From Patescibacteria group bacterium (lineage in GTDB: Bacteria; Patescibacteriota; Minisyncoccia; Minisyncoccales; Staskawiczbacteraceae): a stretch of DNA of 55,646 nucleotides. Where the stretch lies: positions 1 through 55,646 of the forward strand of contig JBBTVX010000002.1 in NCBI GenBank assembly GCA_038063015.1. The letters are read 5' to 3'. The notes below the pieces were generated by a model, which did not search any database, had not been told where the DNA came from, and worked only from the letters and a program-made list of their open reading frames with translations. Both the position numbers and the translations under genes were made by a program. Within the stretch, counting starts at the first letter, position 1. Each line of letters starts with the position of its first letter. This document shows positions 17,578 to 18,273 of the stretch, one piece after another.

Positions 17578-17614
17578 ATTAGTAATAATGATGCGTACGC
17601 ACACTTATTACCAA
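17578..17614. repeat. Palindromic direct repeat A1 upstream of the PaaX-like gene
   Basis: ATTAGTAATAATGATGCGTACGCACACTTATTACCAA, 34/37 identical to 18237-18273; core palindrome TGCGTACGCA. Confidence 0.85.
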
Positions 17615-17635
17615 ACACATGATATAATAAAATTA

Positions 17636-18196
17636 ATGAAAGCAGATGCCTCGAGAAAAATATTGGGATATTTAGTTTTAGCAGGAGCAGTGTCTGTTGC
17701 TGCCACTTCGCCATTTTTTCTTTATAAGCTGGCAAAACTTGTAGTTAAGGATTTAGAATATAAATCAAAATACGGGAAGAAACTTGATAATGCGTTCTAT
17801 TATTTAAAAAAGAAAGGCTATATTATAGTAGAAAAAGATGGGCACGACATTACTGTCGCGCCAACCCAAAAGGGAGCCAAGATGATGAAAAGATACCAAA
17901 TTTTGGAGCTTAAAGTTGAAGAACCTAAAAAATGGGATGGAAAAATCAGGGTTGTGGCTTTTGATATTCCAGACACCCAAAGAATCAAAAGAAATGCTTT
18001 TAGGCGAAAATTAAAAGAGTTGGGATTTTACTCATCGCAGAAAAGCGTGTGGCTTCATCCTTTTAATTGCAGAAAACAAATTCAGATTCTAAAAGATTTT
18101 TTCGGTTTTGATGATAAGCAGATTCATTTTTTTACTGCAGAGAGAATAGAGGACGAACGGCTGCTAAAAAGGATTAAAGACGTTTATAAAATATAA
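17636..18196 (+). CDS. PaaX-like protein (winged helix plus Cas2-like central domain)
   Basis: YYLKKKGYI...T.KG wHTH end, then KWDGKIRVVAFDIP...RNAFRRKLKELGFYSSQKSVW. Start uncertain, ATG 17636 favoured. Confidence 0.82.
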   Translation: MKADASRKILGYLVLAGAVSVAATSPFFLYKLAKLVVKDLEYKSKYGKKLDNAFYYLKKKGYIIVEKDGHDITVAPTQKGAKMMKRYQILELKVEEPKKWDGKIRVVAFDIPDTQRIKRNAFRRKLKELGFYSSQKSVWLHPFNCRKQIQILKDFFGFDDKQIHFFTAERIEDERLLKRIKDVYKI

Positions 18197-18236
18197 AAAT
18201 TCCTCCTTGTTTGAGTGATGGCCCGTTTATAAAGGA

Positions 18237-18273
18237 ATTAGCAATAATTGTGCGTACGCACACTTATTACCAA
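18237..18273. repeat. Palindromic direct repeat A2 downstream of the PaaX-like gene
   Basis: ATTAGCAATAATTGTGCGTACGCACACTTATTACCAA. Confidence 0.85.

Follow-up and report, generated by a model that had tools for sequence, protein, structure and literature searches.

Private palindrome pairs bracket PaaX/Cas2-like genes of a 'mini-PaaX' module family in Patescibacteria, a probable set of self-recognising repressors

A stretch of 55,646 nt from a Patescibacteria group bacterium, an ultra-small inhabitant of groundwater (assembly GCA_038063015.1, contig JBBTVX010000002.1, positions 1 to 55,646; hereafter the window) carries, at about 17 and 43 kb, two genes for short winged-helix proteins with a Cas2-like domain (PaaX_M), each enclosed by its own pair of long near-palindromes. 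These cassettes are members of a large family of modules in Patescibacteria (candidate phyla radiation, CPR, bacteria), which we call mini-PaaX. Throughout the family the paired palindromes recur, are private to their gene within a genome, are conserved at specific positions and covary with the encoded protein, and gains and losses affect the module as a whole. The reading that we favour, and consider probable, is that a truncated PaaX-type dimer binds both palindromes and represses its own promoter; binding, dimer stoichiometry, repression and the cooperation of the two sites are what we infer from sequence patterns. No description of the module was found in the literature searched, consistent with an earlier note, made from the letters of this DNA, which had not recognised it as a described system.

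A repeat search of the window returned the palindromes of the 17-kb cassette as a single family of 37-nt direct repeats (17578–17614 and 18237–18273, spacing 659), and the claim of the earlier note that a near-identical dyad pair flanks the gene holds: the copies are 92% identical (34/37) and both near-palindromic (arm complementarity 82% and 87%), with GTAATAA/TTATTAC arms around a perfect 10-nt palindrome, TGCGTACGCA. The window contains this core two times (expected 0.01), a count of 2 being reached in 0 of 100 shuffles, and a 30-nt dyad pattern with up to three mismatches matches only the two cassette positions (expected 0.00); a chance origin of the repeat pair is excluded. No further copy of the dyad was found elsewhere in the 594-kb genome assembly. 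The enclosed gene (17636–18196, plus strand, with a plausible ATG at 17636 and its stop at 18196) encodes 186 aa, and a Pfam scan of its product (E up to 0.1) gave only PaaX_M (68.3 bits, cut-off 24, residues 98–172), CRISPR_Cas2 (20.6 bits, under the cut-off of 23.8) and DUF6293_C; the putative recognition helix spans about residues 50–58, and the helix following an FDIP motif residues 113–120. The upstream palindrome sits in a 90-bp divergent spacer between a bAvd-like gene (start 17545, minus strand) and the PaaX-like gene. Beyond it, 6 nt past the palindrome and 7 nt ahead of the ATG, we read an extended −10-like element without a −35 match, TGATATAAT (17620–17628, plus strand), and this short distance to the ATG would imply a leaderless or nearly leaderless mRNA. 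The downstream palindrome begins 40 nt past the stop codon, and of the three mismatches between the copies two are in the spacer and one is in the left arm.

Several smaller features of this cassette were recorded. An N-terminal segment, ILGYLVLAGAVSVAATSPF (17660–17720, residues ~9–27), is borderline hydrophobic for a membrane helix; family N-termini have a median maximum 19-aa Kyte-Doolittle mean of 1.63, with values of at least 1.6 in 49 of 82 members, and the 43-kb paralogue has no such segment. It may anchor the 17-kb protein in a membrane or form helix 1 of the winged-helix domain. A tandem 17-nt duplication (TTTGGTTTAAATTATCC / TTTGGTTTAAGTTATCC, 18325–18358) lies between the downstream palindrome and the next gene, for a Cys-rich protein. 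The upstream dyad (17579–17607) is also the point where one source-run contig stops and the next starts.

The same architecture with a different repeat, which had been noticed around a second PaaX-like gene at 43 kb, was confirmed. This gene (42965–43531, minus strand) encodes 188 aa (PaaX_M E = 7.9e-20, 71.2 bits, cut-off 24), and its product is 39% identical to the 17-kb protein in the Cas2-like half. Its palindromes, at 42912–42949 (downstream) and 43545–43582 (upstream), are identical at 29 of 38 positions and unlike the 17-kb pair in sequence, with the core CACGATCGTG/TACGATCGTG. The gene-proximal half of the upstream site contains TGTGATATAAT, which we read as an extended −10-like element on the strand of the gene. 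The downstream site lies between the stop codon of the PaaX-like gene and the terminator of a convergent GroEL gene, and is therefore no promoter site of a next gene.

A profile search of the assembly (15 contigs, 594 kb, 87.5% complete) detected four PaaX_M genes, two of them in the window, and all four have a private dyad pair. The dyads measure 34–43 bp, their members are 625–660 bp apart, and one member lies 20–60 bp ahead of the ATG while the other overlaps the stop codon or lies at most ~45 bp past it; the register of the two members is direct in three pairs and inverted in the fourth. Each of the four motifs occurs exactly twice, with no extra copy at up to 25% mismatches in the assembled sequence, a count that excludes N runs (contigs C4, C10 and C15) and the unassembled 12%; every motif in this genome is found only at its own gene and not genome-wide. 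A strict palindrome scan of the genome recovered 1 of the 8 known sites, together with terminators and masked N runs.

The arrangement recurs across the family. In a reference set of one genome per prokaryote species at least 443 relatives were confirmed, nearly all of those among the matches listed being Patescibacteria, and 80 loci were kept; 73 of these together with the four genes of this genome gave 77 genes with both flanks. The pair score was the best ungapped match, in either orientation, between 160 bp upstream and 160 bp downstream, and the control consisted of 300 non-cognate pairs (mean 10.0, 99th percentile 16.0, maximum 18.5). A cognate flanking pair above the 99th percentile was present in 67 of the 77 genes. 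Metagenomes, as an independent set, gave at least 573 relatives, of which 80 loci were kept, 64 with a complete open reading frame (ORF) and 55 with both flanks; 35/55 exceeded the 99th percentile of that set (19.5, a threshold inflated because orthologues are shared among samples), with a cognate median of 25.5 against a non-cognate mean of 10.3. Paired dyads in most homologues, a test set beforehand, are thereby found in both collections. In a related genome with 12 copies, 11 of the 12 rows had the cognate pair as best match, and the remaining row belongs to a truncated copy of 122 aa; the palindromes of this genome are mostly distinct, with two pairs having a common core. The PaaX_M domain was present in 75 of 301 genomes sampled across the phylum. 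Searches of mobile collections returned one relative in 2.9 million viral contigs and none in plasmid or phage collections, and a phage or plasmid origin was rejected on these counts.

Where the palindrome axis could be placed (48 of the 77 genes), the upstream axis lies a median of 41.5 bp before the ATG; reading a −10 offset across the family is crude in such AT-rich DNA. The location of the other site bears on a plainer alternative, in which the protein would be an ordinary local regulator, the upstream site serving autoregulation and the downstream site being the operator of the next gene in a two-promoter regulon. The downstream neighbour is indeed co-directional in 49 of 72 cassettes, a co-directional gene lies 30–170 bp past the downstream site in three of the four cassettes of this genome, and palindromes that stand alone in relatives (solo sites) occupy short spacers, often at most 90 bp from a gene start. 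However, the other 23 of 72 downstream neighbours are convergent, that of the 43-kb cassette included, so the downstream site is not generally the operator of a next gene, and co-directionality is lower downstream (68%) than upstream (59/71, 83%) and thus not enriched. The downstream site is also tied to the PaaX-like stop codon (−16 to about +60 nt) rather than to the next start, and the neighbours are housekeeping genes of varied function that share no theme (1 integrase among 140), their synteny recurring within sub-lineages (ArgRS five times, MurB five times, FtsA three times). We regard this alternative as improbable.

The anatomy of the sites points to protein contacts. With half-sites numbered outward from the palindrome axis in 59 cassettes, all four half-sites agree in 76–95% of cassettes at core positions 1–4, in 39–54% at spacer positions 5–9, in 61–83% at arm positions 10–17 and in 25% or less past position 20. 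Position 3 is an invariant G and the core is mostly GCNA-TNGC (the hyphen marking the axis), while arm positions 13–17 are highly variable among cassettes (1.5–1.8 bits). This footprint of core plus arms, common to both sites, is as predicted by selection at protein contacts; recent duplication or hairpin constraint would not yield it. Over 13 contact positions the two sites are equally symmetric (11.05 downstream vs 11.22 upstream, p = 0.48). Beyond ±20 nt cognate copies resemble each other no better than non-cognate ones do (5.4–5.8 vs 4.9–5.0 matches of 15), and the idea that the repeat is a duplication of a longer unit was rejected for the family since likeness ends at about ±20 nt; the 43-kb cassette is an exception, with likeness spanning 65 nt at 72%. 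The relative orientation of the paired sites is direct in 18 of the 59 cassettes, inverted in 7 and ambiguous in 34.

Residues of the protein covary with bases of its palindromes. Against label shuffles the strongest link was that of core position 2 with residue 113 (z = 14.9), a residue located after the invariant FDIP motif, where the first Cas2-like helix is predicted to begin; in the 186-aa protein it is D, and R119 and R123 are invariant. Next came links of residues 52–56, in the presumed recognition helix, with arm positions 13–16. In the merged set of 96 cassettes, Q at residue 113 goes with G at position 2 (34/40) and E with C (23/33), N at residue 52 with A at position 15 (27/34) and D with C (28/43), and Y or N at residue 56 with T at position 13 (44/50). 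Because label shuffles ignore relatedness, two further tests were run, a tree-based one, considered below, and a nearest-neighbour design that replaced it (48 disjoint pairs, 3,080 residue-by-position tests). In the latter, a change at residue 113 comes with a different base at position 2 in 13 of 16 pairs, vs 3 of 32 pairs in which the residue is unchanged (p = 1.3e-6), and a change at residue 56 comes with a different base at position 13 in 18 of 21 pairs, vs 6 of 27 in which it is unchanged (p = 1.3e-5); these were the top two of the 3,080 combinations, with Bonferroni-corrected p of about 0.004 and 0.04, and the second of them provides the covariation of repeat and winged helix that had been put forward as a check. 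A natural experiment is offered by three same-genus orthologues (59–61% identical), in which the core TTCACGATCGTGAA and the start of the Cas2-like helix are kept, while the arms are replaced in all four half-sites and the recognition helices have changed too. The covariation supports recognition of the palindromes by the protein; with the private pairs and the family-wide recurrence, it strengthens the proposal of the earlier note that the product would recognise its own flanking sites.

The same data weigh on the possibility that the palindromes are nucleic-acid structures, acting as terminators, RNA-stabilising hairpins or attC/REP-like single-strand hairpins. Some relatives have perfect palindromes of 38–46 bp that would give long hairpins, and 8 of 17 solo copies lie 0–12 bp from a stop codon. 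The four sites of the window, however, show little or no folding as single strands (−4.6, −5.7, −0.1 and −2.9 kcal/mol; z-scores −2.3 to +1.6), which also speaks against the attC-type likeness suggested earlier, and no T-run follows them. On our promoter reading the upstream copy lies ahead of the −10-like element and would thus fall outside the transcript of the gene, and a structural role leaves both the shared sequence of the two copies and the base-to-residue covariation unexplained. We consider it very improbable.

The mechanism that we propose for autorepression begins with a protein of ~185 aa that retains the winged helix and central Cas2-like dimerisation domain of PaaX and lacks its C-terminal effector domain. 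It would most likely sit as a symmetric dimer on a palindrome of 36–46 bp, the recognition helices of the winged helices contacting the two outer arms (positions 10–17 from the axis) and the start of the first Cas2-like helix contacting the GC-rich core (positions 1–4). One palindrome overlaps or abuts the presumed promoter of the gene, and the protein would therefore be its own repressor, in the manner of PaaX at Px; the other palindrome, which lies just past the stop codon and is as well conserved, probably acts together with the first, by looping or as an insulating roadblock. The gene and both sites are inherited, gained and lost together as an accessory cassette.

A number of observations weigh against this autorepression reading. 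Ten of the 77 reference relatives fall under the pair threshold, several of them having weaker pairs, as do 20 of the 55 metagenome relatives. The tree-based independent-pairs test found just 2–5 pairs on supported branches, with p ≥ 0.125 although the direction was right, and some control combinations in the 48-pair design reach p of about 0.02, for which reason the weaker covariation links are only suggestive. A consensus promoter and terminator scan gave no plus-strand promoter and only trivial core hairpins at the window cassette, TGATATAAT being missed by such a scan because it has no −35 match. The solo copies of two relatives, identical over 40–46 bp (G004 and G027, see below), resemble recent copying rather than an evolved regulon. 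Lastly, a repressor acting on itself alone has no obvious benefit for the host, yet tiny genomes carry 1–12 copies.

Comparison of related genomes revealed gain and loss. The 26 relatives compared carry between 0 and 12 copies; counts within the genus are 4, 1 (a copy bearing an in-frame stop), 0, 2 and 1. Three of the four loci of this genome are empty in same-genus genomes: the FtsW–rpoB interval, the interval between GroEL and a Zn-ribbon gene, and the position upstream of pyrH. The 17-kb cassette lies within a ~9.9-kb FtsW–rpoB stretch (~9500–19435) that is absent from G001, a genome of the same genus. The cassette on contig C1 of this assembly (the C1 cassette) and a 163-aa ORF form a 1,470-bp insertion before pyrH, where G002 and G003 have 46–66 bp; the empty loci that were compared, including those of G002 and G003, retain no palindrome. 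Orthologues of the C1 gene are located elsewhere in G003 and G004, and those of the window gene (57–67% identical) have kept the cassette and share none of its neighbours.

Solo palindromes were found in G004 (7–8), G027 (8), G026 (1), G028 (1) and, of the palindrome type of the 17-kb cassette, G009 (2), with none in G003. Many are identical over 40–46 bp, sharp-edged and set in unrelated flanks. The palindrome type of G004 is confined, among the 26 genomes, to G004 itself, which alone has the cognate gene. In G009 the type of the 17-kb cassette stands at four places, where arms and core differ by 0–1 mismatch and the spacers differ; this conservation of contact positions next to diverged spacers argues for selection for binding. 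One solo of G004 (46 bp) is inserted exactly between the LigA stop and the FtsW start, which in this genome are separated by 2 bp (8416–8419), and no target-site duplication is evident at this junction, the one compared with its empty site. The LigA–FtsW junction was hit at least twice independently, by the G004 solo and by a full cassette of another palindrome type in two genomes (loci listed: L033, L046 and L112). On contig C14 of our own genome, a 33-nt spacer (~25000–25035) syntenic with a G004 solo (G004:C27:361–398) is weakly similar to it (local score 12 vs 6.9 ± 1.3 in shuffles, reached in 12 of 2000) and could be what is left of a solo that has decayed.

Gain and loss between same-genus genomes, together with the solo palindromes of relatives, favour some mobility, and they bear most directly on the alternative that the cassette is a selfish mobile element whose palindromes are its ends or attachment sites and whose protein directs or catalyses copying, excision and insertion. 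Variants include RAYT/REP-like action and the movement of cassettes into solo palindromes, self-binding then serving transposition or maintenance instead of regulation for the host; such an element is compatible with DNA binding and could exist alongside autorepression. In its favour are the copy number of 0–12 and the patchy presence of the domain (75/301), the three empty loci, the displaced C1 orthologues and the changed neighbours of the window-gene orthologues, the solo palindromes with unrelated flanks in five genomes, the precise insertion between LigA and FtsW with a cassette of another type at the same junction, the restriction of the G004 type to G004, and the variable orientation of the sites. 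On the other side, the Pfam matches of the protein are limited to PaaX_M, a weak Cas2 and a weak winged helix, and it has no domain of a transposase, a recombinase or the HUH class; solo copies are lacking in this genome for all four of its palindrome types; and the empty sites of G002 and G003 do not hold the single palindrome that the earlier note had proposed to look for at such loci. The lack of an evident target-site duplication at the solved LigA–FtsW junction, the almost exclusively housekeeping neighbours with recurrent sub-lineage synteny, the near absence of the family from viral, plasmid and phage collections and the weakness of the single-strand hairpins also count against it, and the conserved contacts and diverged spacers of the G009 solos indicate old, selected sites. 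Assembled contigs over 14000–20500 contain no junction skipping 17.58–18.27 kb and no circle, a result that weighs neither for nor against mobility since such contigs drop rare forms. We hold the mobile-element alternative to be possible but doubtful. In its most explicit form, an autonomous element, the Cas2-fold protein would read the palindrome with both domains, use it as its end or attachment site, copy it to new intergenic places and move the gene between sites, mutually orthogonal elements sharing one 0.6-Mb genome and the invariant aspartate of FDI lying over the centre in a nicking or cleavage site; this we think unlikely.

The surroundings of the cassettes are themselves variable. 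FtsW (8413–9501) and rpoB (19435), separated here by the ~9.9-kb stretch, are only about 320 bp apart in G001. In addition to the PaaX-like cassette, this stretch holds genes for a VWA/CobT_C protein (9852–12017), an AAA_5 ATPase (12484–14790), a GIY-YIG ORF (14760–15068), an AbiEii-type gene (15415–16059), a 455-aa ORF (16143–17545 region), the bAvd-like gene (17234–17545, minus strand; 38.8 bits, marginally short of the cut-off of 40), which overlaps the 3′ end of that ORF, and a gene for a Cys-rich secreted protein (18443–19135). The 455-aa ORF has an Asn-rich C-terminus ending in ...CGVRPAVRV, which we take to be typical of targets of diversity-generating retroelements; reverse transcriptases were seen on other contigs only (C6 and C1), and assembled contigs vary at 16772–16814, mostly at A positions (5 of the 6 listed). 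At the position of the C1 cassette upstream of pyrH, G001 has another, GC-rich insertion of ~1 kb (L091, on its contig C6), the protein of which ends in …GGLRARSVVS, similar to the end of the 455-aa ORF. The spacer after GroEL (42824–44521 in this genome) contains the 43-kb cassette and two ORFs without a Pfam match (43720–43968 and 43983–44390); it measures 262 bp in G002 and 582 bp in G001, with a small membrane ORF, and in G004 is occupied by 1.9 kb of other genes, including two ORFs that by eye resemble a methyltransferase–nuclease pair.

Patescibacteria have tiny genomes with few recognisable regulators, yet a quarter of those sampled carry 1–12 copies of this module. If the proposed reading is right, the covariation would amount to a residue-to-base code for a DNA reader of two domains, one of them a Cas2-type fold that makes base contacts, something not shown for PaaX, and the paralogues of one genome would be orthogonal repressor–operator pairs without cross-reaction. 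The family would also be a test case for the spread and decay of a self-contained protein–site unit in minimal genomes, an example of such spread being the solo palindromes inserted between the essential genes ligA and ftsW. For annotation, these genes are now labelled after a phenylacetate repressor that they are not.

The comparison with PaaX itself shows how far this label reaches. PaaX, the phenylacetyl-CoA-responsive repressor of E. coli and Pseudomonas (structure PDB 3L09, named in PMC9493321), has, like mini-PaaX, a winged helix followed by a central Cas2-like dimerisation domain (PF20803). Its E. coli site, TGATTC-N27-GAATCA, is a similarly long palindrome with arms about three helical turns (27–30 bp) apart (N27 there, positions 10–17 here), and PaaX represses its own promoter by steric hindrance (PMC9493321); according to the same review no PaaX–DNA complex had been solved as of 2022. 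The mini-PaaX proteins differ in their length (~185 aa vs about 310) and in the missing effector domain PaaX_C (PF08223, which binds phenylacetyl-CoA), with no match in the window protein (E up to 0.1) or in the 87.5%-complete genome. Against a cut-off of 264.55, the NCBIfam PaaX equivalog TIGR02277 scores the four genes at 33.1, 30.4, 36.6 and 27.6 bits, the matches covering only positions 33–156 of 279, in the winged-helix end of the model and its central domain. Further differences are the GC-rich core that covaries with the Cas2-like domain, which goes beyond the account in PMC9493321, and the bracketing of the gene by two sites, with a private site for each paralogue and up to 12 paralogues in genomes of 0.4–1.5 Mb.

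Likeness to Cas2 is also partial. Like the Pfam model, TIGR01573 scores the window gene below its cut-off (22.0 vs 24.5); one C1 paralogue reaches 26.9 on Cas2, and PADLOC Cas2 models give 15–28 bits. Cas1 (PF01867) was not detected in the 87.5%-complete genome by a search that was positive in 7 of 14 genomes, CRISPR arrays not having been searched for. The only solved structures matched by the family profile are PDB 4rs8 and 5k1y, both of AspA, a winged-helix protein that binds the centromere of the archaeal plasmid pNOB8; this likeness is weak and limited to the winged helix (profile positions 43–92, E ~3e-3), and AspA, part of a partition system of three genes, lacks a Cas2-like domain.

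Among self-flanked genes, those of REP/RAYT (REPIN) systems are single genes flanked by their own palindromic element, with lineage-specific palindromes, an HUH/Y1 transposase and hundreds of copies. Mini-PaaX resembles them as a single gene between its own lineage-specific palindromes, which in some genomes are dispersed in intergenic spacers near gene ends. It differs in having no HUH/Y1 transposase domain (Pfam, E up to 0.1) and in having 2–10 palindrome copies (exactly 2 per type in this genome, 1–8 solos in relatives) instead of hundreds; hairpin potential is not conserved, and several orthogonal systems share one genome. The CI repressors of lambda (OL/OR) and coliphage 186 are likewise encoded between their own operators, and act with DNA looping. 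As in mini-PaaX, the sites lie hundreds of bp apart and one set overlaps the controlling promoter. Those, however, belong to immunity switches of phages, which comprise several promoters and partner genes, and the mini-PaaX module is a single chromosomal gene in a ~700-bp unit with one site per side, not found in the phage collections searched. Of the hallmarks of insertion sequences and transposons (a transposase, inverted terminal repeats and a duplicated target site), a transposase domain is lacking here; the palindromes are trivially inverted repeats of one another, and no duplication is evident at the one junction compared. Integron attC cassettes have one 3′ hairpin of a shared type and depend on an integron integrase (for which no search was made here), in contrast to the private, weakly folding sites on both sides of mini-PaaX genes. 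Xer/dif (pdif) modules, finally, share one dif-like site, to which XerC/XerD of the host bind, whereas the four cassettes of this genome have four different sites, and the sites of the family covary with the protein that each cassette encodes.

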